Positions 6,351-56,236 of a DNA stretch of 64,000 bases are shown piece by piece. Source of the stretch: Lachnospiraceae bacterium. GTDB taxonomy: Bacteria > Bacillota > Clostridia > Lachnospirales > Lachnospiraceae. The DNA lies in NCBI GenBank assembly GCA_028692975.1, contig JAQUWF010000006.1:5363-69362 (forward strand), read 5' to 3'. The position numbers and the translations under genes are program-made. The notes beneath the pieces are model-generated. The model was given only the letters and a program-made list of their open reading frames with translations, searched no databases and was not told where the DNA came from. Each line of letters begins with the position of its first letter. Positions within the stretch are counted from its first letter, which is position 1.

Positions 6351-7823
6351 TTATTTGTCATCCCAGTCATCCAGTCCCGCGGTGGGCCTGTTCGGATCAA
6401 AGACCGTGGCCGGGTCAAAAAGTTCTGTCAGTTTGTTGGCACCGTTATGAATATCCTGATACATACGGTACCCATCCAGATTGATTCTGCCCTGGCGCAC
6501 ATAATCCTGTGTGATCTGCACCCAGTACAGATTAGAATCCACATTGCAGAAGAATCGGAAGCCCTGTCCTTTCAGATACTGATACGTCTCATTAGTATCC
6601 TCGTATTCGGTCCAGGAGCCGATATCCGTTCCGAATGGATAAATGATGATATCCGTCGGTCCGATCACATTGGCCACACGCTCCTGCCATTTGTCCGCAT
6701 CCGTCTTGACCTTGTCGAAGCTGCTGCCATAACTGATATGTCCGTAACTGTGACTGGCGAATTCCCAGCCATCATCCTTCAATGCCTGCACCACAGGTTT
6801 TGCCTTTTCTATCTCTGCCTGATAATCAAAAACGCCGTACTCCGTGGCATTTTTGTTGCCTTCCTCCGCAGTCTTTGCCAGATCCGGGTCCGTGCGGTAG
6901 CCCAGTACCCCATTGTATCCGGTCAGCGCCAGAATACCCTTGGCACCCTTATAAGAAAAATCGGGATGTGCTTCGATAAAGTCATCCAGGCACGGCACCA
7001 CATCGTAGGAGCCTGTCACCACGGTCCCATCCTGCTGGGTATATTCGTTGGTCGGCTTGCCGTCCTCGCCCACGATTAGCTTGTCTGCATAACCGTCGCC
7101 AGTCATATAGAAGTAATAACTCACATCATCCTGTGACAGTACGAAAGGCTTTTTGCCTTCAGGAAGCATAAGATTTTCATTTTTCGCAAAAGAAATATTC
7201 CCATCCGCATCCGTAGTTTCCACCACAAGATCCCGGATGTTCACCAGCACATACCCCCGGTCATACATCTGCTGCATGATCTTATTGAACTCATCGATAG
7301 TGGTCATGACCTGATTATAATCGGCGATCTTATATTCATTTGCCCCGGTAAGATTCCATGTAATAGATGGGTCCGCCACCAATGTATGGAAAAACACATG
7401 GCTGACCGTCTCCACATCCACGGGCACCAGCTTGGTCTTTGCAGCCTCATACTCTGCGATCTTGCCTGTAATCGTCGCATTTCCGGCATAATCCGGTATA
7501 GCCTGCAGCTGCTGGATCGCGCCGTCATAGTCGTACCCCATAGCCGTCACTTCCGCCTGGGCGATCAGAACATTCTCCGCATCCGCTTCCTTTTGTACCT
7601 CCGCCTCCTGTGCCGCCGCAGCCGCCGCCTCTTCCTGCTTTTTCGCTTCTTTATTTTTGATCACAGCCCGAACGCCGAATATGGTGCCAAAGATGATCAG
7701 CAGCAGTGCTGCAACACATGCCGCCCGCATCATATATGCCTTGCGTCTTCTCTTTCTTCTCCGCTCCAGCTGTGCTTTGGACAGCTGCCGCTGCCCGGTA
7801 CTCTTTCCTCTTTCGTCCCCCAT
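6351..7823 (-). CDS. membrane-anchored polysaccharide deacetylase (NodB/CE4-like) family protein
   Basis: 490-aa ORF with a basic N-terminus (RRRKRRRK), one TM helix and an extracellular domain carrying LSQDDVSYY and HSYGH motifs consistent with the CE4 Asp-Asp and His-x-x-x-His metal motifs. Confidence 0.7.
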   Translation of the reverse strand: MGDERGKSTGQRQLSKAQLERRRKRRRKAYMMRAACVAALLLIIFGTIFGVRAVIKNKEAKKQEEAAAAAAQEAEVQKEADAENVLIAQAEVTAMGYDYDGAIQQLQAIPDYAGNATITGKIAEYEAAKTKLVPVDVETVSHVFFHTLVADPSITWNLTGANEYKIADYNQVMTTIDEFNKIMQQMYDRGYVLVNIRDLVVETTDADGNISFAKNENLMLPEGKKPFVLSQDDVSYYFYMTGDGYADKLIVGEDGKPTNEYTQQDGTVVTGSYDVVPCLDDFIEAHPDFSYKGAKGILALTGYNGVLGYRTDPDLAKTAEEGNKNATEYGVFDYQAEIEKAKPVVQALKDDGWEFASHSYGHISYGSSFDKVKTDADKWQERVANVIGPTDIIIYPFGTDIGSWTEYEDTNETYQYLKGQGFRFFCNVDSNLYWVQITQDYVRQGRINLDGYRMYQDIHNGANKLTELFDPATVFDPNRPTAGLDDWDDK

Positions 7824-7837
7824 ATAGATGCTCTCCT

Positions 7838-9325
7838 TTAGCCTTTTCCGGATGCCACAACCGGCGTCGGCCTCCTTGAGTCAAAGATGCTGGCCGGATC
7901 GTCAAAGAAGTCATCCAGCACATCGGTCTGGCCCTGATTTGCCTTATACAGCATATAACCGTCAAGATTGATACGCCCCTGACGCACATAACTGTCGCTG
8001 ATCTGTTCCCAGTATTTCTGGGAACCATCTACATTACAGTAGTAGTTAAAGCCCTGGCTCTTATAATATGCATACTGTGGATTATCATCCGTATATCCCT
8101 TCCAGCTGCCAATATCCGCGCCATGGGCAAAGATAATAATCTCTGTTGGTCCAACGATATTTTCCACTGTTGCTTTCCATTTCTCACAGTCTGCCTGCAG
8201 AGTCTCCACACTCTTGCCTGTTACCAGCAAATGTCCCCATGTATGACATGCGAACTGCCAGCCGGATTCCTTTATGGCATCTGCAATCTTTGTGGCGTCC
8301 GCCACATCCTGATCCCAGTTAAAGTCCGGGTGCTCCGCCAGCCATTCGCTCTGGTCGGTCTGCAGATTTTCACCGGTCTTATATGCCACATCAGTACGAT
8401 AGCCAAACACGCCATTATATCCGGTCATGGCGATCATTCCTCTGGCCCCTTTATATGCCCCGTCGGGATGTGCCTCCAGGAATGTATTCAGCCGCGGCAC
8501 TACATCGTAGTCACCCAGCGTCGTATTTCCATCTGCATCCGTATACTGGCATTTCACTTTATTATTTTCATCCAGCACCATTTTCTCCGGATAACCGGCC
8601 AGTTTGTAAGAATGATAATAACTCAGGTCGTCTATGGACAGGACGATCGGCTTCTTATCTGCCGGAAGCTTCAGGTCCGTATTCTTGGTAAAATGAACCG
8701 TTCCATCCTCATCTTTTGTCTCTTTGACCAGATCGGTCAGCCGCACGTACACGTATCCATTGTCATACAGCTGCTGGGTAATATTATCAAACTCCTCCAC
8801 CGTGGTCATCCAGGCATTCTGCCCGCCCACGGAAGACTTGCCAAGCGTTTCCACATTAAAGGCCCTGTTTGTATCATTGATCAGAGAATGATAGAAAATA
8901 TGCGGCACCTTGGTCACATCCACCTGTACCAGCGTGGATTTGGTCGCCGTGAATCCGGCTATGGCTGCAATAATATCTGCATCTTCCTCATATCCGTCTA
9001 TGGTCTCCAGCAATGCAATAGCCCCATCGTAATCATAACCCTGGGCCATGGTATTTGCCTGGGCTATCATATCCTTTCGCTGCTGGATCTTTTGTTCCTC
9101 CGCCTGGATTTCTGCCTCCTTGGCCGCTTTTTCTTCCTGTTTTCTGGTATCATGGCTCTTGATGCCTGCAGAAACTGCCCAGATACCGCCAGCCAGCACC
9201 AGCAGGACTACCGCCAGTGAAACTGCCCGCAGAATAAGCGCCTTGCGGCGTTTTATTCTCCGCCGCTCCAGTTGTGCCTTCGTAGGCCTCCGCCGGTTCT
9301 GCCCCTGTTCATTTTGTGTACTCAT
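7838..9325 (-). CDS. membrane-anchored polysaccharide deacetylase family protein, tandem paralog of 6351-7823
   Basis: 495-aa ORF with the same architecture and colinear similarity to its neighbour (KAQLERRR..., LSIDDLSYY, HTWGH, YVRQGRINLDGY shared). Confidence 0.7.
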   Translation of the reverse strand: MSTQNEQGQNRRRPTKAQLERRRIKRRKALILRAVSLAVVLLVLAGGIWAVSAGIKSHDTRKQEEKAAKEAEIQAEEQKIQQRKDMIAQANTMAQGYDYDGAIALLETIDGYEEDADIIAAIAGFTATKSTLVQVDVTKVPHIFYHSLINDTNRAFNVETLGKSSVGGQNAWMTTVEEFDNITQQLYDNGYVYVRLTDLVKETKDEDGTVHFTKNTDLKLPADKKPIVLSIDDLSYYHSYKLAGYPEKMVLDENNKVKCQYTDADGNTTLGDYDVVPRLNTFLEAHPDGAYKGARGMIAMTGYNGVFGYRTDVAYKTGENLQTDQSEWLAEHPDFNWDQDVADATKIADAIKESGWQFACHTWGHLLVTGKSVETLQADCEKWKATVENIVGPTEIIIFAHGADIGSWKGYTDDNPQYAYYKSQGFNYYCNVDGSQKYWEQISDSYVRQGRINLDGYMLYKANQGQTDVLDDFFDDPASIFDSRRPTPVVASGKG

Positions 9326-30549: not shown

Positions 30550-30681
30550 AGACACCTCCGTAGGCCCTGTGGAATTACTACTAATACAATACCAGACTTC
30601 CACCCTGCCGTCCAGATTTTATAACAAAAAATACCCCGGCAGCCTTGAAAAGCCACCGGGGCATCCTATCGTATTTGACTT

Positions 30682-31134
30682 TTATTTCTCGTACTGTTTA
30701 TCCTCAATATCTTTGAGCATATCGATACGCACCTGATGTCTTTCACCTTCAAACTCAGCTTTGATCCATTCATCCACGATCATTTTTGCCAGTTCGATAC
30801 CGATCACCCGGGCACCGAAAGCCAGAATGTTGGTGTTGTTATGCTGTCTGGAAAGTCTTGCAGAATATGGCTCGCTGCAGACTACAGCACGGATGCCGCG
30901 TACCTTGTTGGCTGATAAGGAGATGCCTACACCTGTTCCACAGATCAGGATACCTCTATCCACTTCGCCGGATACAACTGCATTTGCTACTTTTTCCCCA
31001 TAGATTGGGTAATCACAACGGTCTGTACAGTCTGTGCCATAGTTGATGACTTCATGGCCCATGCTCTCCAGATATTCTGTGATTTCTTTTTTCATTTCTA
31101 CTGCTACATGGTCATTACCGATTCCGATTTTCAT
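30682..31134 (-). CDS. rpiB: ribose-5-phosphate isomerase B / allose-6-phosphate isomerase
   Basis: MKIGIGNDHVAVEMK..., ILICGTGVGISLSANK, NNTNILAFGARV are RpiB/LacAB signatures. Start set at ATG 31134; the track ORF carries 44 spurious extra codons. Confidence 0.9.
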   Translation of the reverse strand: MKIGIGNDHVAVEMKKEITEYLESMGHEVINYGTDCTDRCDYPIYGEKVANAVVSGEVDRGILICGTGVGISLSANKVRGIRAVVCSEPYSARLSRQHNNTNILAFGARVIGIELAKMIVDEWIKAEFEGERHQVRIDMLKDIEDKQYEK

Positions 31135-31147
31135 AATCCCTGCTCCT

Positions 31148-32065
31148 CTATGCTCTTTTTTTCGCCTGCTTGAATCCGTGGATACCTGCACCGATGACGC
31201 CATTTTCCTGTCCCGGAACGGAATACACAAAGTCCAGATTTTGTTCCGGATATGGCTTTCTCGCATATTCGTGAATAGCAGTCTCTAACTGCTCCTTTGG
31301 AAATCCCGGCATCTGTACCACACCACCACCGATGATAATGTAATCCGGATCGAGAATATTGATCTCTGCCGCCACTGGAATAGCCAGGTCATGGATAAAC
31401 TTCCGGATCGCCGGATCTTCGCTGTGTTCTTTGAACACATTACCGATAAAGGCGCCGCCCAGTTCCGTATCACAGACTTCACGCAAATGCTTGCCTGATG
31501 CAAATAATTCCACACAGGAGGTATTTCCGCATCCACATTTACCCTGCACGTCTCTGGAAGGGATATGTCCCAATTCCGCTGCTGCACCGTTTTTACCGAT
31601 GAGCAGTTCCCCGTTGATGGCGATGGCATTGCCAAGGCCTGTTCCAAGATAAAATGCTGCGGTGATTCCCTCATCCGGGATACTGCCCTTGAACATATCA
31701 TGTCGAAGGAGCATGTCCACATCCGTATCTATATACGTAGGAATACCAACCTGCGCTTCTATTGTATCAACCACAGGCACATTGTCAAGACCCGCAATAT
31801 TCGGCGTAGATAAAACCACCTTGCGGTCCCGGTCTATGGTGGACGGGAAGCCCAGTGAAATACCGGCTATATTTTTACCTTTTCCCTGATCGTCCAAATA
31901 TCTTTTCACAAATAACAATAATTTGTCTGCTGCATGTTCGGCGTCCATTATCTGGGTACTGCTCTCAATGATAAAATCAGAAAGATTGTAGTCCTCACCT
32001 ACCAGGCCCGCGCGGATATTTGTTCCGCCGATATCGATGCCCAGCATATATTTTTTATCTGACAT
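31148..32065 (-). CDS. ROK family sugar kinase (AlsK-like by context)
   Basis: LGIDIGGTNIRAG ATP motif and ROK Zn motif GHI...CGCGNTSCVE. Positioned as alsK is in the E. coli als operon. Confidence 0.8.
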   Translation of the reverse strand: MSDKKYMLGIDIGGTNIRAGLVGEDYNLSDFIIESSTQIMDAEHAADKLLLFVKRYLDDQGKGKNIAGISLGFPSTIDRDRKVVLSTPNIAGLDNVPVVDTIEAQVGIPTYIDTDVDMLLRHDMFKGSIPDEGITAAFYLGTGLGNAIAINGELLIGKNGAAAELGHIPSRDVQGKCGCGNTSCVELFASGKHLREVCDTELGGAFIGNVFKEHSEDPAIRKFIHDLAIPVAAEINILDPDYIIIGGGVVQMPGFPKEQLETAIHEYARKPYPEQNLDFVYSVPGQENGVIGAGIHGFKQAKKRA

Positions 32066-38848: not shown

Positions 38849-40381
38849 TTAATCCACTGCAACGGCAGCTCGCATAATTGTTTCTTCTGTCGCTTCACCT
38901 GTCGCCTCATTATTTGTCAACACTCCTGATATCTCACCATTTCTGAACACGATAATTCTATCGCATGTAGATAAAAGTTCCGGCATTTCTGAGGAAACCA
39001 TAACAATGGCTTTTCCATCATCTGCCATACCACGCATAATATCGTAGATCTCGCTCTTTGCACCCACATCAATACCTTTTGTCGGTTCATCAAAAATAAA
39101 TACATCCGAATTAACGGCCAGCCATTTTCCTATGATAACCTTCTGCTGATTACCGCCGGAAAGATTGACGGTCATCTGATTGATACCGGAACATTTTGTA
39201 TTCAGGCGTCCGACCTGTTCTTCTGCCATCTTTTTTTCGTCCTTGTCATGTACAAGTCCGCTGAAACCTGCTAATCTTGATTTTTTCAAATTCATTGTCA
39301 CGGAAATCTCACGCCAGATTTCAAAATTCTGGAAGAATCCTGTTTCACGGCGGTTTTCTGTAACCATGGCGATTCCCTTTTTCAACGCATGATAGGTATC
39401 TTTTATCTTGATCGGTTTGCCATGCAGAAAGATTTCTCCGCTGGAAATTGGTTTCGCGCCAAAAATCCCTTCCATACATTCCGACCGACCTGCGCCAATG
39501 AGTCCCGCGAATCCAAGGATTTCACCTTTTCTCACGTCAAAGCTGATGTTGCGTGCCGTTCCATCTTTTCTGGTAAGATTCTTCACAGAGAAAATAACTT
39601 CATTATTTTTTTCTATTTCTGCTTCATTTCCCAGATGACTGGCTTTTATCTTACGTCCTACCATCATTGGGATCAGATCGTCCACTTCAATATCTGCGAC
39701 ATCGCGCGTCTCCACGTATGCCCCATCCTTTAAAACAGTGACCCGGTCTCCCACCTGCTTGATTTCTTTTAATTTGTGGGAAATATAGATGATGCCAATT
39801 CCATTTTTTTTGAGTTTTTCAATAATCTGGAACAGTTCTTCTGTCTCTTCAATAGACAAAGAAGAGGTCGGCTCATCCATAATAATTATCTTGGCATCTG
39901 CCGCCAGCGCTTTTGCAATCTCCACCTGCTGCTTCTCGGAAATGGAAATATCCTGAACCAAAGTGTTTGGACTTCTCTTGATGCCGATTTCGTCCATATA
40001 CTTTTTCGCCTGCTCATTGATATATTTCCGGTTCATAATCTTCATCCCGGCGATTTTTTTGTAGGGTAGTTTTCCTACATAAAGATTTTCCGCAATGGAT
40101 AATTCATTTACTACACTCAATTCCTGATAGATGATTGCAATTTTATTCTCAACAGAATCCTTTGGTGTCAAATGGCTGTATGACTTTCCACCGATAATGA
40201 TTTCACCCTCTGTCGGTTTATTGATCCCACTCAGCATTTTAACCAGTGTGGATTTTCCGGCTCCATTCTCACCAAGTAATATATGTACTTCTCCTGGTTT
40301 CAAATTAAAAGAAACTTTGTCAAGAGCTACGACGCCAGGAAATTTCATAGTCATGTTTTTCATTTCTACCAAATATTCCAT
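38849..40381 (-). CDS. sugar ABC transporter ATP-binding protein, duplicated ATPase
   Basis: Two ABC cassettes (GENGAGKST; LSGGNQQKV); paralog of 33841-35361. Confidence 0.9.
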   Translation of the reverse strand: MEYLVEMKNMTMKFPGVVALDKVSFNLKPGEVHILLGENGAGKSTLVKMLSGINKPTEGEIIIGGKSYSHLTPKDSVENKIAIIYQELSVVNELSIAENLYVGKLPYKKIAGMKIMNRKYINEQAKKYMDEIGIKRSPNTLVQDISISEKQQVEIAKALAADAKIIIMDEPTSSLSIEETEELFQIIEKLKKNGIGIIYISHKLKEIKQVGDRVTVLKDGAYVETRDVADIEVDDLIPMMVGRKIKASHLGNEAEIEKNNEVIFSVKNLTRKDGTARNISFDVRKGEILGFAGLIGAGRSECMEGIFGAKPISSGEIFLHGKPIKIKDTYHALKKGIAMVTENRRETGFFQNFEIWREISVTMNLKKSRLAGFSGLVHDKDEKKMAEEQVGRLNTKCSGINQMTVNLSGGNQQKVIIGKWLAVNSDVFIFDEPTKGIDVGAKSEIYDIMRGMADDGKAIVMVSSEMPELLSTCDRIIVFRNGEISGVLTNNEATGEATEETIMRAAVAVD

Positions 40382-40451
40382 AAGTTCCCTCTTTCATTAT
40401 GAAAGTAACTTCCGGGCCCTACACCCGGAAATCACCTGATTTACTATATTT

Positions 40452-40508
40452 CCTGATTCATTTTCTTACGGTCAGCGCAGTAAATGCGCCGACCTACTGA
40501 ATAGTTAC
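40452..40508 (+). mobile_element. 57-bp interspersed repeat unit (B-type), flanked by direct repeat TTACTATATTT / TATATTT
   Basis: 53/57 identical to the reverse complement of 48315-48371 and 51/57 to 55469-55525. Contains the hairpin GGTCAGCGCA-GTAAA-TGCGCCGACC. Direct repeats lie at 40441-40451 and 40505-40515. Confidence 0.6.
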
Positions 40509-40518
40509 TATATTTTTA

Positions 40519-41586
40519 TTATTTCAGATATTCATCTACATTGTCTGCTGTAACAAGGAATGAATCGATATAATTCACAGGCATTTCAGCAGAAGCATCT
40601 GCCTTCCATCCTTCTTTTGCTGCTTTTACTGCCAGTTCGCAGCATGCGATACCGATACCTACATTATCCTGTCCAACGGTCGCTGCCATCTCACCATTTT
40701 TAACAGACTCCTTCGCATTCTGTACCGCATCTGTTCCGACTACCATGACCTGATCCTGTTTACCTGCATTGACAACCGCTTCGTAAACACCTAATGCCAT
40801 AGTATCATTGCAGCAGTAGAATGCTTTCAGTTCTGGATTAGACTGCATGATGTTGGTCGCAACGTCGATAGAAGTCAGACGGTCCCAGTCACCGGACTGG
40901 CTTGCTACAACGTCAATACCGTCAACACCCTTGAAGTAATCCGTAGCACCCTTAGTACGATTGTTGGAAGTCACATTGCCTGCTGTTCCTTCGATGATGG
41001 CAACCTGGCCGCTTCCAATCTTTTCTGAAATGTATTCTGCACCCTTCTGTCCAACTATTACGTTATCTGTGGTGTAGATACCAACCATATTTCCACCGCC
41101 TTCTTTTACTGCTTCCGCGTCGATGGCCTCATCTACATTAACTACAGGAATACCTGCCTCACAGGCTTTGATAACACCTTCTACCAGGTTGGATGCTGAA
41201 AGCGGAGCTGCACAGATTGCATTGTAATCTTTAGAAATAATGTTTTCCATCTGCTCTAACTGTCCCTGTATATTGTCCTCAGACTCTGCACAATATACAT
41301 CAACACTCACGCCGTCCTGTCCTTGTGCCCATTCTTCAATACCAGCCTTCATAGATGACCAGTATTCATTAGATTCCGGTTTCAAAAGAACTGCCAGTTT
41401 TACTTCCCCGTCCGCACTTGCTGTATCTTCTGTTTTTTTATCCTCTGTTTTTGTGTCTTCTGTTTTTGTGTCTTCTGTCTTTGTGTCTTCTGTTGTCGCC
41501 GGTGCATCAGCGCTGTCTGACCCACATGCAACCAATCCCATTACCATTGCTACTGCTAATACTGTTGCCAATAACTTTTTCTTCAT
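40519..41586 (-). CDS. sugar ABC substrate-binding lipoprotein
   Basis: Lipobox LVACGS, a (TEDTK)n linker, then a PBP type I fold. AGGAGGAAG RBS. Confidence 0.85.
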   Translation of the reverse strand: MKKKLLATVLAVAMVMGLVACGSDSADAPATTEDTKTEDTKTEDTKTEDKKTEDTASADGEVKLAVLLKPESNEYWSSMKAGIEEWAQGQDGVSVDVYCAESEDNIQGQLEQMENIISKDYNAICAAPLSASNLVEGVIKACEAGIPVVNVDEAIDAEAVKEGGGNMVGIYTTDNVIVGQKGAEYISEKIGSGQVAIIEGTAGNVTSNNRTKGATDYFKGVDGIDVVASQSGDWDRLTSIDVATNIMQSNPELKAFYCCNDTMALGVYEAVVNAGKQDQVMVVGTDAVQNAKESVKNGEMAATVGQDNVGIGIACCELAVKAAKEGWKADASAEMPVNYIDSFLVTADNVDEYLK

Positions 41587-47301: not shown

Positions 47302-48318
47302 ATGACAAATAGATCCGTAACTATGAAAGATGTGGCGAAACTGGCCGGCGTTTCTCAGCCTACTGTTTCTTATGTGATAAATGGTACCGCCAGTATCTCC
47401 CCTGAGGTAACAGAGCGTGTGCTGCGTGCGATTGAAGAGACTGGCTACCAGCCCAACGCCTTTGCTCAGAATCTGAAGAGAAGCTCTTCCTCCACGATTG
47501 CTGTTCTGATTCCTGATCTGGTAAACCCGTATTATGCCAGTGTTTCTCAGGAAATCGAACAATATTTATCCCAGAAGGGATATTTTACCTATCTGGCCTG
47601 CAGCAACAGCGATCCTGCTACGGAAGAATCTTACATAAAATCCTTTCTCCAGCATAAAGTATCGGGCATACTTATTTTTTCTCTGGTCAACCGCCAGCTT
47701 TACAAATTAATCGCCAATACAGGAACACCTATGGTCCTCTTAGATGACCAGTCAAATACCTTTCATCTGCCTTACCTTCATATACGCAACCAGGAAGGTG
47801 CTATGACTGCCGTAGAATATCTACATGATTCTGGATGCCAAAAGATTGGATTTGTCAGTGAACCTCTTGTGAAATTATCCATAAAAGAACGTTGGAAAGG
47901 CTTCGAGCAGATCTACAAAAAATATTATCCGGATAATCCGGCGGACCATGCAATAACCCTCTCTTGTGCGGGTAATACTTACCGTTCTGGTTATGATCTG
48001 GCAGAGAAACTTTTGGAAGATGGTTACGATGGGCTCTTTGTCACCTCCGATTTCCTGGCATGCGGACTGATCAAAAAATTGGGAGCCCTGCACGTTGATA
48101 TTCCGGAACAGATTTCTATTATCGGTTATGATGGTTTGTATATTTCAGATCTGATTACCCCAGCCTTGTCTACCATGCAGCAGCCCATATCAGAAATCTG
48201 TCATGAGGGCGCAAACATGTTGCTGGATATCATTCATACCGGCCAGTACAAACAGGTGCAGGAGCTGCGGCCCACATTGCTTTTACGTGAAACCACGAAA
48301 AAATTGGATCCGCGGTAA
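47302..48318 (+). CDS. LacI family transcriptional regulator
   Basis: HTH MKDVAKLAGVSQPTVSYVIN plus an effector domain. GAGGTG RBS. Its stop codon lies inside the terminal GTAAC of a repeat element. Confidence 0.9.
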   Translation: MTNRSVTMKDVAKLAGVSQPTVSYVINGTASISPEVTERVLRAIEETGYQPNAFAQNLKRSSSSTIAVLIPDLVNPYYASVSQEIEQYLSQKGYFTYLACSNSDPATEESYIKSFLQHKVSGILIFSLVNRQLYKLIANTGTPMVLLDDQSNTFHLPYLHIRNQEGAMTAVEYLHDSGCQKIGFVSEPLVKLSIKERWKGFEQIYKKYYPDNPADHAITLSCAGNTYRSGYDLAEKLLEDGYDGLFVTSDFLACGLIKKLGALHVDIPEQISIIGYDGLYISDLITPALSTMQQPISEICHEGANMLLDIIHTGQYKQVQELRPTLLLRETTKKLDPR

Positions 48319-48446
48319 CTATTCCGTAGGTCTGCACATTTACTGCGCTGACCGTAAGAAAATGATTCAGGAGTGAAAAAAAACCATTACCGCAGGTGAT
48401 TTTCATGGATTTTCGAATCGTAACTGGTCAGGTACTGAGCAGTTAC
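48315..48446. mobile_element. 132-bp MITE-like element with imperfect terminal inverted repeats and an 8-bp target-site-duplication-like direct repeat
   Basis: Termini GTAACTATTCCGTA... and ...TACTGAGCAGTTAC match as inverted repeats at 11/14. Flanks are GATCCGCG (48307-48314) and GATCCGTG (48447-48454). The left 57 bp equal the B-type unit (reverse orientation) and the right 30 bp equal 15988-16017. Confidence 0.65.
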
Positions 48447-48547
48447 GATCCGTGTAAAAATCTCTTGTGAAATTACGAAATACCATATATACTTATTCGT
48501 ATAAATAAATCCTGTTATATTTTATAATAAAACTGAGAGGTGCCTAT

Positions 48548-50970: not shown

Positions 50971-51030
50971 AAAAACAGGATTGTGTATACAGGTGATTTT
51001 CATCTGCCTGCTGCACAATCCTGTTTTTTA
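50971..51030. terminator. bidirectional intrinsic terminator between convergent genes
   Basis: AAAAACAGGATTGTG (50971-50985) pairs perfectly with CACAATCCTGTTTTT (51014-51028), flanked by A-run and T-run. Confidence 0.7.
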
Positions 51031-52296
51031 CTGTAACATGATCTTGATGATTTCTTTATCGGTCTGCTGCATGCCGACCTTTCCGATATACCCTACGCAG
51101 CTGATCGTCTCTCCAGCCTCTTCCTTGAGGATACCGGTATATGCCTTATAAGCCCGTCCCTGCATAGCCAGATAATGGGACATCATAGACGCGTCCAGAC
51201 TGGTGGCAATCTTCGCCGCGCAGGACACCTTCGCCCCATCACAGATAATCCCCGGAATATTGGCCAGCGTGTTGCCCACGGTATTCTTGATCTGTTCCGA
51301 TGTGCCGCCGATCATATAAGTGATAGCCGCCCCTGCCGCGCAGGAAGCCGATACTGCCCCACAGAAAGCGGATAATTTCCCGATAAATTCTTTCTGGTAA
51401 ATGGTCAGCAGGCTGGAAAACACCAGCGCCCGGTACAGTTTCTCGGCACCGATATTTTTCTCCCTGGCATATACGATGACCGGCACAGAAGATGCGATGC
51501 CCTGATTGCCGCTGCCGGAATTGATGATAACCGGCATGTCGCAGCCGTCCATCCTTGCCTCAGAAGCCGCCGAAGTGTACGCCTTCATTCTGGTGACCAC
51601 GCCTTCATGGTAACATTCTTTGATCGTCTTGCCGATGCCCACCCCATAATCTCCGGACATGCCTTCGTAAGCGATGTCCATGTTGCAGCGTATCTGCTTG
51701 TCGATAAGTTTTTTGATTGTTCTTATTTCTATGGTATCCGCAAATTCTTTGATATTATCCACGTTCAGATTGGTGCGGTTTGCCTTGACCTTCTGTTCTT
51801 TTCCGCTCCCTGATGTGAAGATATTTTCTCCGTTTTTTATGATCCTTGTAATATTCAGATGGGTGTTCTGGATTTCCACCAGCACCTCTTCCTCACCTTT
51901 GCATAATTCTACAATAATATGTAAAGGTATCTCCGACTCCAGGAATTCCACCTTGCAGCGCTGGGCTGCCAGCAGTTCCTTCGTCCGGGCGATCTGTGCA
52001 TCCGTCACGTCTTCCAGCACTTCCATGGCCTTTGTAGCGTCACCGCCGATCACGCCCAAAGCCACCGCAGCCTCCACCCCTATCATTCCGTCTGAGTTTG
52101 GGATACGCACGCAGCGCACATTTTTGATAATATTCCCGCTGCACCTGGCAATAATCCGCTCCGGCTCACACCCCAGCACATCTCTGGCCTTCGCCCCCAC
52201 ATAAGCCAGTGCAATGGGCTCCGTACACCCCATAGCCGGAATGAGTTCTTCCTTTAGAATGTCTAAAAATTCCTGTTTTATAGCATCATTTATCAT
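51028..52296 (-). CDS. UPF0597 / YhaM-type serine-dehydratase-alpha-like protein (L-cysteine desulfidase family)
   Basis: LIPAMGCTEPIALAY N-terminal motif and SGSGNQG core are typical of YhaM/CyuA-like proteins. Start set at ATG 52296 (GAGGAG 7 nt upstream). Confidence 0.8.
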   Translation of the reverse strand: MINDAIKQEFLDILKEELIPAMGCTEPIALAYVGAKARDVLGCEPERIIARCSGNIIKNVRCVRIPNSDGMIGVEAAVALGVIGGDATKAMEVLEDVTDAQIARTKELLAAQRCKVEFLESEIPLHIIVELCKGEEEVLVEIQNTHLNITRIIKNGENIFTSGSGKEQKVKANRTNLNVDNIKEFADTIEIRTIKKLIDKQIRCNMDIAYEGMSGDYGVGIGKTIKECYHEGVVTRMKAYTSAASEARMDGCDMPVIINSGSGNQGIASSVPVIVYAREKNIGAEKLYRALVFSSLLTIYQKEFIGKLSAFCGAVSASCAAGAAITYMIGGTSEQIKNTVGNTLANIPGIICDGAKVSCAAKIATSLDASMMSHYLAMQGRAYKAYTGILKEEAGETISCVGYIGKVGMQQTDKEIIKIMLQ

Positions 52297-52359
52297 CAAA
52301 TATCTCCTCTGTGTCATCGTGATTTCTTACTTATTTGTACATGGTTACTCCGTTTTTAC

Positions 52360-52388
52360 ATTATAACCTTTTTCAGAGATAATTTGAA
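52360..52388 (-). promoter_or_regulatory. putative sigma-A promoter of the yhaM-like gene
   Basis: Minus strand: TTCAAA (52388-52383), a 17-nt spacer, then TATAAT (52365-52360). Confidence 0.5.
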
Positions 52389-52433
52389 CCACCAGTTTAT
52401 GTATTACTCCGCTCCTTTATAAACTACATGCTA

Positions 52434-53676
52434 GGGCAGCAGGACTTGCTTTTCTTTCCCGCTGCCCAATCTCTTCTCACCTTTGGGTAACATGACTTGC
52501 TTTTCTTTCCTGCCGCCCAATCTCTTCTTTCAATTGGCTAGCATGACTTGCTCTTCTTTCCTGCTGCCCAATCTCTTCTCACCTTTGGGCAGCAGGACTT
52601 GCTTTTCTTCCCCGCTGCCCAATCTTATCTTTCCCTTGGGTAGCATAACTTGCTTTTCTTTCCTGCTGCCCAATCCTATCTTTCAATTGGGTAGCAGGGC
52701 TTGCTTTTCTTCCCCGCTGCCCAATCTCTTCTTTCAATTGGCTAGCATGACTTGCTTTTCTTTCCTGCTGCCCAATCTCTTCTCACCTTTGGGTAGCATG
52801 GCTTGCTTTTCTTTCCTGCCGCCCAATCTTATCTTTCTCTTGGGTAGCATGGCTTACTTTTCTTCCTCGCTGCCCAATCTCTTCTTTCAATTGGCTAGCA
52901 TGACTTGCTTTTCTTTCCTGCTGCCCAATCTCTTCTTTCTCTTGGGCGGCATGGCTTACTTTCTTTCCTGCTGCCCAATCTCTTCTTTCTCTTGGGCGGC
53001 ATGGCTTACTTTTCTTCCCCGCTGCCCAATCTTATCTTCCTCTTGGGTAGCATGGCTTACTTTTCTTCCTGCTGCCCAATCTCTTCTTTCAATTGGGTAG
53101 CATGGCTTGCTTTTCTTTCCTGCCGCCCAATCTTATCCTCCTCTTGGGTAGCATGGCTTACTTTTCTTCCTCGCTGCCCAATCTCTTCTTTCAATTGGCT
53201 AGCATGACTTGCTTTTCTTTCCTGCTGCCCAATCTCTTCTTTCCCTTGGGTAGCATAACTTGCTTTTCTTTCCTGCTGCCCAATCTCTTCTCACCTTTGG
53301 GCGGCAGGGCTTGCTTTTCTTTCCTGCCGCCCAATCTTATCTTTCTCTTGGGTAGCATGGCTTACTTTTCTTCCTCTGCCCAATCTCTTCTTTCTCTTGG
53401 GTAGCATGACTTGCTTTTCTTTCCTGCCGCCCAATCTCTTCTTTCACTTGGGTAGCAGGACTTGCTTTTCTTCCCCGCTGCCCAATCTTATCTTCCTCTT
53501 GGGTAGCATGGCTTACTTTTCTTCCTCGCTGCCCAATCTCTTCTTTCAATTGGGTAGCATGACTTGCTTTTCTTCCCTGCTGCCCAATCTCTTCTTTCAA
53601 TTGGGCGGCAGGGTTTGCTTTTCTTCCTCGCTGCCCAATCTCTTCTCACCTTTGGGCAGCAGAACTTGCTTTTCTG
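52434..53676. repeat. tandem array of 24 complete units plus one partial unit of a 51-bp repeat; each unit contains a 12-13-nt inverted repeat
   Basis: Hand-parsed units: 21 of 51 bp, 2 of 50 bp, 1 of 49 bp (sum 1220 bp) plus a 23-bp partial unit. Consensus GGGTAGCATGACTTGCTTTTCTTTCCTGCTGCCCAATCTCTTCTTTCAATT. The plus strand is about 70 percent pyrimidine. Arms TTGGGYRGCAKG and CCTGCYGCCCAA are reverse complements. Confidence 0.95.
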
Positions 53677-53844
53677 GCCGGGTATGACAACTATCAGCAG
53701 CCACTGTGTTACCAAAAAAGCAAGTTGGTGCATGGGGAATGATTTATGGGCAAGGTTTTGCGATTGTACAAAGTTTTGGGCAAGGAACTCTGCGGAGGTG
53801 AGTTCCTTGCCCAATTATAGAAAAGTAGTTTACATAACAAATTA

Positions 53845-55437
53845 TTATTTCAATAATTTCGCCAGATCCGCCTCCGGGGTGCTGATGGGGGCAATGTTGA
53901 AATGCTCTACCAGGTAATTCAACACATTCGGCGAAATAAATGCCGGCAGTGATGGTCCCAGGAGAATATCCTTGATGCCCAGATGCAGCAGGGTAAGCAG
54001 GATACACACGGCTTTCTGCTCATACCAGGACAATACCATGGATAAGGGCAGTTCGTTCACGCCACATCCGAAGGCATTGGCCAGTGCTACGGCCACCTGG
54101 ATTGCAGAGTAAGCGTCATTACACTGTCCCATATCCAGAATACGCGGCAGGCCGCCGATGGTGCCAAGGTCCAGATCATTAAATCGATATTTGCCACAGG
54201 CCAATGTGAGAATAATGGAGTCTTCCGGTGTCTGCTTTACAAACTCCGTAAAATAATTTCTGCCGGTTTTCGCACCGTCACAGCCACCCACCAGGAAGAA
54301 ATGCTTGATTGCGCCACTCTTTACCGCCTCGATCACGGTATCTGCTACGCCAAGCACGGTGCCGTGGCCAAATCCTGTAGTTACCTGCTTACCACCGTTG
54401 ATGCCGGTAAATTCTGTGTCTTCCGCGAAACCGCCCAGTTCCAAAGCCTTCTTGATCACAGGCGTGAAATCTTTCTCATCATCAATATGCACCATCTCCG
54501 GATAAGAAACGACTTCTGTCGTAAACACCCTGTCTGCGTAACTTGCTTTCGGCGGCATAAGGCAGTTAGTGGTAAAAAGGATCGGTGCAGGGAGATTGTC
54601 AAATTCTTTCTGCTGATTCTGCCACGCAGTGCCAAAGTTCCCCTTCAGATGTGGATATGCTTTCAATTTCGGATATGCATGGGCCGGCAGCATCTCGCCA
54701 TGGGTATAAATATGAATCCCCTTGTCCTTTGTCTGCTCCAACAACTGTTCCAGATCCTTCAGATCATGTCCAGTCACTACGATGAACGGACCTTTTTCTA
54801 CAGAAAGCGGAACCGTAGTCGGCTTCGGTGTCCCATATGTCTCGGTATTGGCCTGATCCAGCAGTGCCATACATTTCAGATTCACTTCCCCCACTTCCAT
54901 AACAATAGGAAGCAGTTGCTCCATATCCAGATCTTCTCCCACAGCGAACATACCCTTATAGAAAAAATTATTCACCGTTTCATCTGTATAACCCAACACC
55001 ATAGCATGATAAGCATAAGCCGCCATGCCACGCAGACCGAAGAGAATCAGCGACTTCAGGGAACGTATATCTTCATCCGCATTCCATAGTTCTTTCATAT
55101 TATAATTGTTGTTGTGCCCGCAAGGTGACGCACAGCCACCGCACTGAGGGGCAAGCTCTGCTTTCGCTTTCTCAATATCTGCAATGCGCTCCTGCAGCGT
55201 CTCGCTGTTAAAGTTCACGTTCGTCACGGTGGTAAATAAGCCTTCGATCATAATTCTGTGGGTACGCTGGGTTGGCTGGTTGCCATCAGCGGCTCTCGCC
55301 AGTCCGATGAGCGCGCCAGTCAGTTCGTCCTGCAGCCCCGCCACTTCCGCGTCCTTTCCACAGACACCTTTCTTTCCAGTACATCCGCTGCATCCTGCAG
55401 TCTGCTCACACTGATAACAAAACATTTCATTTGCCAT
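53845..55437 (-). CDS. hcp: hydroxylamine reductase / hybrid-cluster protein
   Basis: N-terminal MFCYQCEQTAGCSGCT Cys cluster and full-length Hcp architecture. Start set at ATG 55437 (GGAGGA 8 nt upstream); the track start is a TTG five codons earlier. Confidence 0.92.
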   Translation of the reverse strand: MANEMFCYQCEQTAGCSGCTGKKGVCGKDAEVAGLQDELTGALIGLARAADGNQPTQRTHRIMIEGLFTTVTNVNFNSETLQERIADIEKAKAELAPQCGGCASPCGHNNNYNMKELWNADEDIRSLKSLILFGLRGMAAYAYHAMVLGYTDETVNNFFYKGMFAVGEDLDMEQLLPIVMEVGEVNLKCMALLDQANTETYGTPKPTTVPLSVEKGPFIVVTGHDLKDLEQLLEQTKDKGIHIYTHGEMLPAHAYPKLKAYPHLKGNFGTAWQNQQKEFDNLPAPILFTTNCLMPPKASYADRVFTTEVVSYPEMVHIDDEKDFTPVIKKALELGGFAEDTEFTGINGGKQVTTGFGHGTVLGVADTVIEAVKSGAIKHFFLVGGCDGAKTGRNYFTEFVKQTPEDSIILTLACGKYRFNDLDLGTIGGLPRILDMGQCNDAYSAIQVAVALANAFGCGVNELPLSMVLSWYEQKAVCILLTLLHLGIKDILLGPSLPAFISPNVLNYLVEHFNIAPISTPEADLAKLLK

Positions 55438-55468
55438 TTTATTTTCCTCCAATTAATCTAAGATTTTT

Positions 55469-55525
55469 CCAGAATCATTCTCTTACGGTCAGCGCAGTAA
55501 ATACGCAGACCTACTAAATAGTTAC
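55469..55525 (+). mobile_element. 57-bp interspersed repeat unit (B-type) overlapping the 3' end of the ferredoxin gene, flanked by direct repeat GATTTTT(CC)
   Basis: 51/57 identical to 40452-40508. Direct repeats lie at 55462-55470 and 55526-55534. The last three codons (VTI) and the TAG stop of the upstream CDS lie inside the unit. Confidence 0.6.
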
Positions 55526-56236
55526 GATTTTTCCATCTGTTGAAATAGTTACTACCTGCCACGGGATAAATTTCCCGCTGTTTTGTAATGCATTTTTTGC
55601 TGCGTTTTCGATGCCGCCACAACAGGGCACTTCCATGCGCACGATGGTGAGGCTCTTAATGTTATTATTCGCAATAATCTCCGTCAGCTTTTCTGCGTAA
55701 TCGCCTTCATCCAACTTCGGACATCCAATAAGGGTAATACGGTTTTTGATAAATTTGTTATGGAAATCCCCATACGCATATGCCGTACAATCCGCCGCCA
55801 CCAGCAGATTCGCCCCGTCAAAATAAGGTGCATTTACCGGTGCCAGTTTAATTTGGACCGGCCACTGGGATAACCGGCTGGACACGGGCTGGCTGTCATT
55901 TGCCGCACCCGAAACCGCACATGCCTCTTCCCGGACAATCCTTTTGGAATTACTTCCCGGACATCCGCAGGGCAAAGGCTGTCCCTGCTGCAGCGTCTTT
56001 CCCTTCTTATGCTCCTGCACCGCAGCGTCATCATACGCCGCTGCCTCCCGCTCCACGAAAGTGATCGCACCCGCAGGGCAAGTGGGCAGACAGTCGCCCA
56101 ATCCATCACAGTAATCGTCCCGCAGCAGCTTCGCCTTTCCGTCTATCATGCCGATAGCCCCTTCATGACAGGCCGCCGCACAGGCTCCGCATCCATTACA
56201 CTTTTCTTCATTTATCTCTATAATTCTTCTAAGCAT
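55514..56236 (-). CDS. 4Fe-4S dicluster ferredoxin-domain protein, hcp-associated
   Basis: CNGCGACAAACHEGA and CDGLGDCLPTCP cluster motifs plus a C-terminal Cys-containing domain. Start set at ATG 56236 (AGGAGG 8 nt upstream). Confidence 0.8.
   Translation of the reverse strand: MLRRIIEINEEKCNGCGACAAACHEGAIGMIDGKAKLLRDDYCDGLGDCLPTCPAGAITFVEREAAAYDDAAVQEHKKGKTLQQGQPLPCGCPGSNSKRIVREEACAVSGAANDSQPVSSRLSQWPVQIKLAPVNAPYFDGANLLVAADCTAYAYGDFHNKFIKNRITLIGCPKLDEGDYAEKLTEIIANNNIKSLTIVRMEVPCCGGIENAAKNALQNSGKFIPWQVVTISTDGKIVTI

Follow-up and report, generated by a model that had tools for sequence, protein, structure and literature searches.

A tandem array of 51-bp palindromic units between hcp and a yhaM-like gene in a Lachnospiraceae bacterium, a probable non-coding minisatellite

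Introduction

What kind of element is a run of 51-bp units, each carrying a pair of inverted arms, that fills 1.24 kb between two genes of a Lachnospiraceae bacterium? The array lies at 52434–53675 of a 64,000-nucleotide stretch of contig JAQUWF010000006.1 (assembly GCA_028692975.1), referred to here as the window, and is flanked by hcp and by a gene resembling yhaM. An initial annotation made from the sequence offered three candidate roles, a multi-hairpin non-coding RNA or sponge, a protein-binding array, and a hypervariable minisatellite, and the last of these fits best. The units lie head to tail and, at 51 bp in 24.4 copies, are within the ~10–100 bp range of minisatellites, and their variants form a mosaic. 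The reading favored here, with moderate confidence, is that the array is a non-coding, lineage-restricted palindromic minisatellite generated by slippage and unequal recombination of palindromes downstream of hcp.

Structure of the array

Tandem Repeats Finder (TRF) reports a single strong array at this location, with a period of 51 bp, 24.4 copies, 83% matches, 2% indels and a score of 1529, in agreement with the 51-bp tandem hairpin array first described by eye.

52434–53675, no strand: tandem array, 24.4 copies of a 51-bp unit (TRF, unit parse, arm tables, composition)

A CCCAA anchor is invariant (n = 24), and the 23 intervals between anchors are 51 bp (20 intervals), 50 bp (two) and 49 bp (one) in length, which fits the earlier hand count of 21, two and one units followed by a 23-bp partial unit. 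Two of the three short units each lack one base in a homopolymer run. A 23-nt unit motif has 20 matches at three or fewer mismatches, all within the array, where shuffled sequences are expected to give 0; elsewhere in the window the unit is absent, apart from one arm-like hairpin at 53776–53814.

All units contain an arm A (TTGGGYRGCAKG-like; commonest form TTGGGTAGCATG) and its inverse, arm A′ (CCTGCYGCCCAA-like; commonest form CCTGCTGCCCAA), in the order arm A (12 nt), spacer (14 nt), arm A′ (12 nt) and spacer (13 nt), such that 12+14+12+13 = 51. The arms and their alternating spacers are as initially annotated, although the spacer lengths given then (15–16 and 12–13 nt) were a minor miscount, and are 14 and 13 nt when the arms are taken as 12 nt. 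Hairpin polarity is uniform, with arm A followed by the 14-nt spacer and arm A′ in 24 of 24 cases, and a unit with matched arms noted near 53298 is real, being perfectly matched at 53297–53334 (inverted repeat search, I4). CCCAATC and TTGG are invariant in all units and CTTTTCTT is nearly so; GTAG occurs within the stem of most A arms only. The half-sites are regularly spaced with centers 25–26 bp apart. Both spacers are pyrimidine-rich, as is the plus strand of the array generally (AT skew ~ −0.6, GC skew ~ −0.33), and the purine-rich minus strand is the sense strand of both flanking genes.

The units vary in a structured manner. Among the 23 complete units aligned 21 are distinct, with 20 transitions and seven transversions; 17 polymorphic columns are shared as opposed to nine singleton columns, and all four allele combinations are present in 69 of 136 column pairs. 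No exact internal repeat is longer than a 103-nt duplicate of two units, and a higher-order repeat was rejected for want of a clear lag periodicity. The mosaic of unit variants remarked on in the initial annotation is thus upheld by the column counts, and is the signature of amplification and conversion, in which a few variant units were re-duplicated and recombined with little private mutation since.

Array edges and local palindromes

The edge of the array nearest hcp overlaps local palindromes, two of which form predicted hairpins.

53665–53718, minus strand: boundary hairpin 2 (sequence reading, RNA fold)
53776–53814, minus strand: hairpin 1, ~30 nt past the hcp stop codon (inverted repeat I1, fold)

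In hairpin 2, AACTTGCTTTTCTGG (53665–53679), which is the spacer of the final, partial unit, pairs with an inverted partial unit, CCAAAAAAGCAAGTT (53704–53718), forming a 16-bp stem in which the 3′ arm is the first array spacer and the 5′ arm the inverted partial copy (the fold of 53640–53850 on the minus strand has z = −6.1 for the whole segment). The array therefore adjoins an inverted piece of its own unit. Hairpin 1 has a perfect 15-bp stem (TTGGGCAAGGAACTC/GAGTTCCTTGCCCAA), and at its outer ends it carries TTGGGCA...TGCCCAAT, which matches the array arms; outside the array it is the only TTGGG...CCCAA hairpin with arm-like ends in the window, and it is conserved in two related contigs (L084 and L085, described below). 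It is a probable hcp terminator, albeit a weak one with a poor U tract. Given this edge overlap with local palindromes, the array grows out of a pre-existing palindromic region downstream of hcp.

A terminator scan of 51900–54100 finds no canonical intrinsic terminator. The loops of the array hairpins are 13–14 nt long and pyrimidine-rich tails follow the stems on the plus strand only; the array hairpins were rejected as intrinsic terminators, with no GC-rich stem carrying a 3–8-nt loop and a U tract among them.

Coding potential

The array is non-coding. Its period equals 17 codons, yet, as initially claimed, the three short units together break every frame (unit parse). Plus-strand frame f1 (LGSMTCFSFLLPNLFFQ) is the only one without a stop in any unit, because stop-capable triplets are found at only two sites, both in arm A, and the sense-strand frames have stops in several units. 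Variation across the units has no codon-position pattern. A chimeric query of six frames has no match with E ≤ 0.01 in a set of 5.8 billion protein clusters, whereas by a local HMMER control self-like open reading frames (ORFs) would score at E values of 1e-24 to 1e-119. A full HMMER scan of a 205-aa ORF against 1.84 billion representatives gives three weak matches only. Judged by sequence alone, one of the three is an out-of-frame repeat, one is unrelated, and the third is an intergenic 51-bp array. No homologous repeat protein or intact ORF came to light in these searches. The broken frames and the lack of a homologue among the protein clusters bear out the view that the array is not a recognizable gene.

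Selection on structure and strand

No selection on structure or strand is detectable within the array. Matched stems had been put forward as a sign of structure, but adjacent arms pair no better than permuted ones (p = 0.55 for loop-14 and 0.91 for loop-13 hairpins), with 224 and 222 Watson-Crick pairs respectively and 9.36 per stem as the all-versus-all mean. The stem position that varies most brings G of arm A opposite C of arm A′ in a single loop-14 hairpin and in no loop-13 hairpin, approximately as by chance. Relative to shuffles both strands fold far more stably (z = −17.6 and −14.8), a trivial result because the arms are inverted, and folding of both strands, suggested as a check, leaves them indistinguishable in minimum free energy (−421.7 vs −422.2 kcal/mol). 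The strand energies and the mismatch counts also give no support to a proposed plus-strand preference, there being 23–24 G:T mismatches (G-U on the plus strand) and 17–19 A:C mismatches (G-U on the minus strand). About one third of the arm columns (8/24) and about one third of the spacer columns are polymorphic. Rfam 15 has no match at gathering score in the window, and none at E ≤ 1 for 52250–53900.

Distribution

The array is rare. Two unit-specific DNA patterns, which in hindsight were too specific, have no match in 185,579 species-representative genomes, JGI metagenomes or IMG/VR, and the unit gives nothing by blastn against plasmids and phages. No comparable array is present at 80 yhaM loci of other Clostridia (nhmmer with a two-unit profile, and TRF), and no description of this unit was found in the literature. 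Among GTDB representatives, yhaM homologues reach only 70% identity at best. A related Lachnospiraceae metagenome-assembled genome (MAG; locus L086), whose hcp protein is 87% identical, lacks both the array and an adjacent yhaM, and a different gene follows hcp.

Closer relatives (~90% nucleotide and 97–98% protein identity) are represented by short Logan contigs only (L081–L085), which stop at or near the array edges, such that copy number is unreadable from them. Contig L083 begins with GCTGCCC, 7 nt inside the last arm of the array. L084 and L085 come from two different samples and share the end ...CCTGCT, preceded in each by a diverged flank. These ends fit a repeat or polymorphism at the same place, but are not proof of one.

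The third weak HMMER match (P0246, E = 7.9e-4) is the translation of a 51-bp tandem repeat on a 667-bp metagenome contig (L087; ENA ERZ28594415 scaffold_216710). This contains 3.2 copies of CTTTTGGGCTCTATGGTGTACTTTTCTCGCTTTAGCCCAAACTATTTTGGT with a period of 51 bp, ~65% identical to the unit in the window; one of 2000 shuffles scores as high. Its arms, TTGGGCT/AGCCCAA, are inverted, are 7–8 bp long and occupy the same positions as in the window unit; stem position 7 is changed from A-T to T-A, the single compensatory stem change across the family and too little to count. The L087 array is located just past the 3′ end of trmD (PF01746), in the same orientation to the upstream gene as in the window. 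The two arrays are alike in their period, in the shared TTGGG..ATGG.TACTTTTCT..GCCCAA, in GCCCAA/TTGGGC and ACTTTTCT, common to both, and in being pyrimidine-rich on the strand antisense to the upstream gene; L087 differs in its low copy number and shorter arms, in lying beside trmD rather than hcp, and in adjoining a 62-bp repeat. This second tandem repeat (L087 217–367; 62 bp × 2.4, 89% matches) is situated between the 51-bp array and the trmD 3′ end and also contains a GCCCAAA motif. Pattern forms spanning the window unit and L087 would be, for example, TTGGGNNNNATGRNNTRCTTTTCT or TTGGGC-N20-30-GCCCAA with a period of 51, and a degenerate pattern covering both, run on viral contigs, gave four isolated chance matches and no arrays.

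Flanking genes and promoters

The placement of the array between hcp and a yhaM-like gene, both on the minus strand, agrees with Pfam.

53845–55437, minus strand: hcp (hydroxylamine reductase/prismane), upstream of the array in the direction of transcription (Pfam PF03063)
51028–52296, minus strand: YhaM/L-cysteine-desulfidase-like gene (SDH_alpha), downstream of the array (Pfam PF03313)
52360–52388, minus strand: predicted yhaM sigma-70-like promoter site, TTCAAA-17-TATAAT (consensus scan, 10/12)
52355–52383, plus strand: weak divergent promoter-like site, TTTACA-17-GATAAT, that would transcribe the array plus strand (consensus scan, 10/12)

The hcp ORF (53845–55452, minus strand) matches PF03063 (Prismane) with E = 3.7e-171, and the 90% identity cluster of its closest match includes NCBI MDD3337715.1, from a 71,883-bp MAG contig. 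The yhaM-like ORF (51028–52317, minus strand) matches PF03313 (SDH_alpha) with E = 4.2e-60; it has a likely ATG start at 52296 preceded by AGGAG, and its protein is 100% identical to NCBI MDD3337711.1 (Lachnospiraceae bacterium MAG). Look-ups by exact protein sequence, made for the two flanking genes with two alternative starts each and for P0001, gave no record. The accession gap from MDD3337711 to MDD3337715 suggests that three hypothetical coding sequences are annotated in the array region (52434–53845), and none of these putative products was found in the protein collection searched. The 15 neighboring ORFs scanned, ~9.8 kb each side, have ordinary metabolic and regulatory functions (sugar metabolism, Fe-S, transport, regulators), including a Crp/Fnr-type regulator gene 2.6 kb from the array. 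No mobile, cas, partition or transposase genes are among them, which supports the earlier remark that the array has no associated mobile gene.

The yhaM promoter-like site is ~46 nt past the array end and is kept in L081 and L083 (~90% nucleotide identity). The array is therefore upstream of this predicted promoter and not in the yhaM leader, in agreement with the initial annotation. The two opposite-strand sigma-70-like sites overlap in one 34-bp AT-rich segment (52355–52388), and the plus-strand site is only partly kept in relatives, with TTTATA instead of TTTACA. Three promoter-like sites are found in the region compared with 1.8 expected in shuffles, which is not above chance.

Synteny between the window and its ~90% identical relatives differs after yhaM (window boundary 51022–51028). 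An rpiB/LacAB gene comes after yhaM in the relatives (L083 1461–2048), and a convergent FGGY kinase gene in the window; the nearest window match of the relatives' rpiB/LacAB gene is 20 kb off at 30582–31171, with 76% identity.

Origin of the array and alternative readings

The minisatellite reading can be set out as a series of steps. An ancestral 51-bp segment downstream of hcp would already have carried palindromes and served as the seed, and its own hairpins may have favored slipped-strand mispairing and unequal recombination, leading to head-to-tail amplification. A few variant units, to judge from the pattern, would then have been duplicated and reshuffled by gene conversion and unequal crossing-over to give the present mosaic. 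The hairpins would thus be inherited from the ancestral unit, there being no sign of unit-level selection maintaining them, and any effect of the array on the cell is probably incidental. Such effects are conceivable, as the array sets hcp and the yhaM promoter 1.2 kb further apart, with up to 48 stem-loops in between: those of the purine-rich sense strand could block 3′ exonucleases or damp hcp read-through, and those of the pyrimidine-rich antisense strand would resemble a series of weak terminators. If the array is only a minisatellite, strains of this Lachnospiraceae lineage could be typed with it as a hypervariable marker; it can also mislead short-read assembly and annotation, ORFs having seemingly been called inside it. 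Two considerations weigh on the other side. A functionless 1.24-kb insert is unusual where bacterial deletion is favored, and its persistence could reflect selection; and a 51-bp period with inverted arms recurs in L087, a hint that the element is conserved or mobile and did not arise as a one-off accident. These two points keep functional readings alive.

That the array, or its copy number or unit order, is an artefact of metagenome assembly is very unlikely. The source is a MAG contig in which 44% of the array 31-mers are not unique, the short-read k=31 contigs of relatives break at both edges, and two of the three unit-length changes fall in homopolymer runs; however, the units differ by 17% in a structured mosaic, every array k-mer is unique at k ≥ 110, and since no exact repeat exceeds 103 nt a k above that length, or reads of 150 nt, would resolve the array. 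The array thus lacks the appearance of a k-mer artefact. A period of 51 is not a usual assembler k value, and both the first base of L083, which falls at the same place, 7 nt into the array, and the independent 51-bp array in L087 argue for its being genuine. Decay of a frameshifted gene for a protein of 17-residue repeats is suggested by the period, by the stop-free plus-strand frame and by the accession gap, which suggests annotated ORFs, but is extremely improbable: the two arm-A sites account for the open frame, the peptide would be rich in Cys, Phe, Leu and Ser and antisense to both neighbors, without a ribosome-binding site or N-terminal region, no frame has a homologue, two of the three HMMER matches were set aside and the other is an intergenic array, and the variation carries no codon-position pattern. 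A sigma-54 promoter reading of the TGG..N..TTGC in the unit (spacing off by 1–2 nt) and an intrastrand triplex (H-DNA; purine and pyrimidine tracts on different strands) were both rejected on inspection only.

Transcription of one strand of the array into a long non-coding RNA or 3′ untranslated extension with many hairpins is unlikely, though it deserves consideration; such an RNA would sponge an RNA-binding protein, shield hcp mRNA from 3′ exonucleases, or organize the nucleoid. Consistent with it are the strong folding of both strands, the poor U tract of the hcp hairpin, which makes read-through into the array plausible, the promoter-like site pointing into the array on the plus strand, the GGA or GA-rich loop that can be read in every sense-strand unit, and the 7–8 bp arms, compensatory change and common orientation to the upstream gene in L087; there is also a precedent in REP325 (REP, repetitive extragenic palindrome), which is transcribed from its upstream gene and bound by HU (PMC4550694). 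Set against these, neighboring arms do not covary, neither strand is preferred, the arms are conserved no better than the spacers, no Rfam family matches, strong folding is trivial with inverted arms, promoters are no more numerous than by chance, and only one distant relative is known. The same relative opens a broader interpretation, considered rather improbable, in which the two arrays constitute an undescribed multi-hairpin family of 51-nt period in Clostridia, positioned in fixed orientation past gene 3′ ends, transcribed by read-through and acting as RNA; if true, the RNA may bar exonucleases, or may gather an RNA-binding or nucleoid protein as a large sponge or scaffold, and the family would be a Firmicute counterpart of the REP325 nucleoid-associated RNA and HU, amplified to 24 units. 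It is quite doubtful that the array is instead a platform of double-stranded DNA on which as many as 48 inverted half-sites, TTGGGYRGCA, would bind a dimeric protein such as gyrase, a nucleoid protein or a regulator that the array may titrate or serve as a decoy, in the manner of the sopC repeats or of gyrase at BIME-2 (BIME, bacterial interspersed mosaic element). The invariant CCCAATC and TTGG and near-invariant CTTTTCTT, the regular spacing of the half-sites, the GCCCAA/TTGGGC and ACTTTTCT common to L087, and the nearby Crp/Fnr-type regulator gene point in this direction. However, there is no adjacent partition or dedicated DNA-binding gene, the arm motif is not found in the hcp and yhaM promoter regions or elsewhere in the window bar hairpin 1, the arms are polymorphic at a third of their columns, and a 12-N14-12 palindrome is not known as a Crp/Fnr-type site.

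Other elements in the window and its relatives

A dispersed, conserved element of ~60–135 nt with the core GTAACTATTCAGTAGGTCTGCGCATTTACTGCGCTGACCGTAAGAAAATGATTCAGGAG is present in the window at 55452–55527 (minus strand), 48315–48449 (plus) and 40436–40508 (minus), in L086 at 8024–8158, and in L084 and L085 at 1–60. It lies just upstream of three unrelated genes, namely hcp, a class II aldolase gene and the gene at 38849–40381, and in L086 just upstream of a gene for a B12-binding protein. It contains a hairpin, GGTCnGCGC-N7-GCGCnGACC, whose pairing is kept in L086 although both sides have changed, with one compensatory pair (RNAalifold), and its longer copies extend to a palindrome, GTAAC...GTTAC. 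Rfam offers no meaningful match to this element, which could serve several genes as an operator or 5′ leader. Its presence also accounts for the Logan contig breaks 79 nt upstream of hcp.

The 630-nt spacer that follows hcp in L086 contains a long inverted repeat (~7690–7915), cacttcggtgatcgggagtccctctgagggctgaacac ... gtgttcagccctcagagggactcccaatcaccgaagtg, which encloses another hairpin; it looks like a miniature inverted-repeat transposable element and is unrelated to the array in sequence. Within the window, the ORF at 40519–41586 (minus strand) contains a 15-bp repeat in 4.9 copies at 41422–41494 (TGTGTCTTCTGTTTT, 87% matches), probably a short in-frame peptide repeat.

Comparison with known systems

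In kind, the array is a generic bacterial intergenic minisatellite with palindromic units. Like CRISPR arrays it has regularly spaced, partly palindromic repeats in a non-coding stretch, but its "spacers" are themselves conserved repeats, its period is only 51 bp, and no cas genes are found among the neighbors scanned. The conservation of both inter-arm segments across units and the lack of cas genes confirm that it was correctly set apart from CRISPR in the initial annotation.

The mycobacterial interspersed repetitive units (MIRUs) used as variable-number tandem repeats (MIRU-VNTR; Supply et al.) are tandem units of 46–101 bp, including classes of 51–53 bp, located between co-directional genes. 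Their unit length is a multiple of 3, their copy number varies, and there are ~40 dispersed loci. MIRUs are situated inside operons and carry short ORFs overlapping the flanking genes at their stop and start codons, and they have no 12-bp inverted arms. This coupling is unlike the array, where all frames are broken and yhaM has its own promoter-like site and ribosome-binding site. The sopC locus of the F plasmid contains a dozen or more direct repeats of ~43 bp, each with a short inverted repeat that is a protein-binding site. Centromere arrays of this type require parA/parB (sopA/sopB) genes next to them on a plasmid or prophage, whereas the neighborhood of the array is chromosomal and metabolic, with no partition genes among the ORFs scanned.

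The initial statement that no element with this architecture has been described was too strong, as tandem units of tens of bp, some with inverted repeats, occur in sopC, in MIRUs and in BIME-2/REP325 (PMC3333891, PMC4550694). REP325, between yjdM and yjdN, has six 77-bp units, each with two palindromes plus linkers; transcription from the upstream gene yields an RNA that binds HU, with a proposed role of nucleoid-associated RNAs in the nucleoid (PMC4550694). For BIME-2/REP elements generally, the proposed roles are mRNA 3′ protection, transcription attenuation, gyrase and HU binding, and nucleoid-associated RNAs, and BIME-2 copy number varies by locus and by strain (PMC3333891, PMC4550694). 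The array resembles BIME-2 in its tandem intergenic units, in its palindromes split by two alternating short linkers, and in its location after a gene 3′ end. The differences are several. REPs are dispersed, with hundreds per genome, and are tied to Y1 transposases (RAYTs, REP-associated tyrosine transposases), whereas the array is one locus in 64 kb with no RAYT among the 15 neighboring ORFs. A dispersed REP-like family within the window was accordingly rejected, the arm motif outside the array being limited to one hairpin. BIMEs alternate REP and inverted REP, while the array hairpins all face one way; a REP is a 30–40-nt palindrome with a 5′ GTAG, a motif that in the array is internal to the arm A stem. 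The array also has 24 units compared with six in REP325, and its host is a Firmicute and not an enterobacterium. It is thus not a family member on any of the defining features tested, and the E. coli BIME-2/REP clusters are its closest architecture. Functional large tandem hairpin arrays are so far known mainly from these enterobacterial clusters, and if a family of the L087 type were widespread and transcribed, a Firmicute equivalent would broaden that picture.

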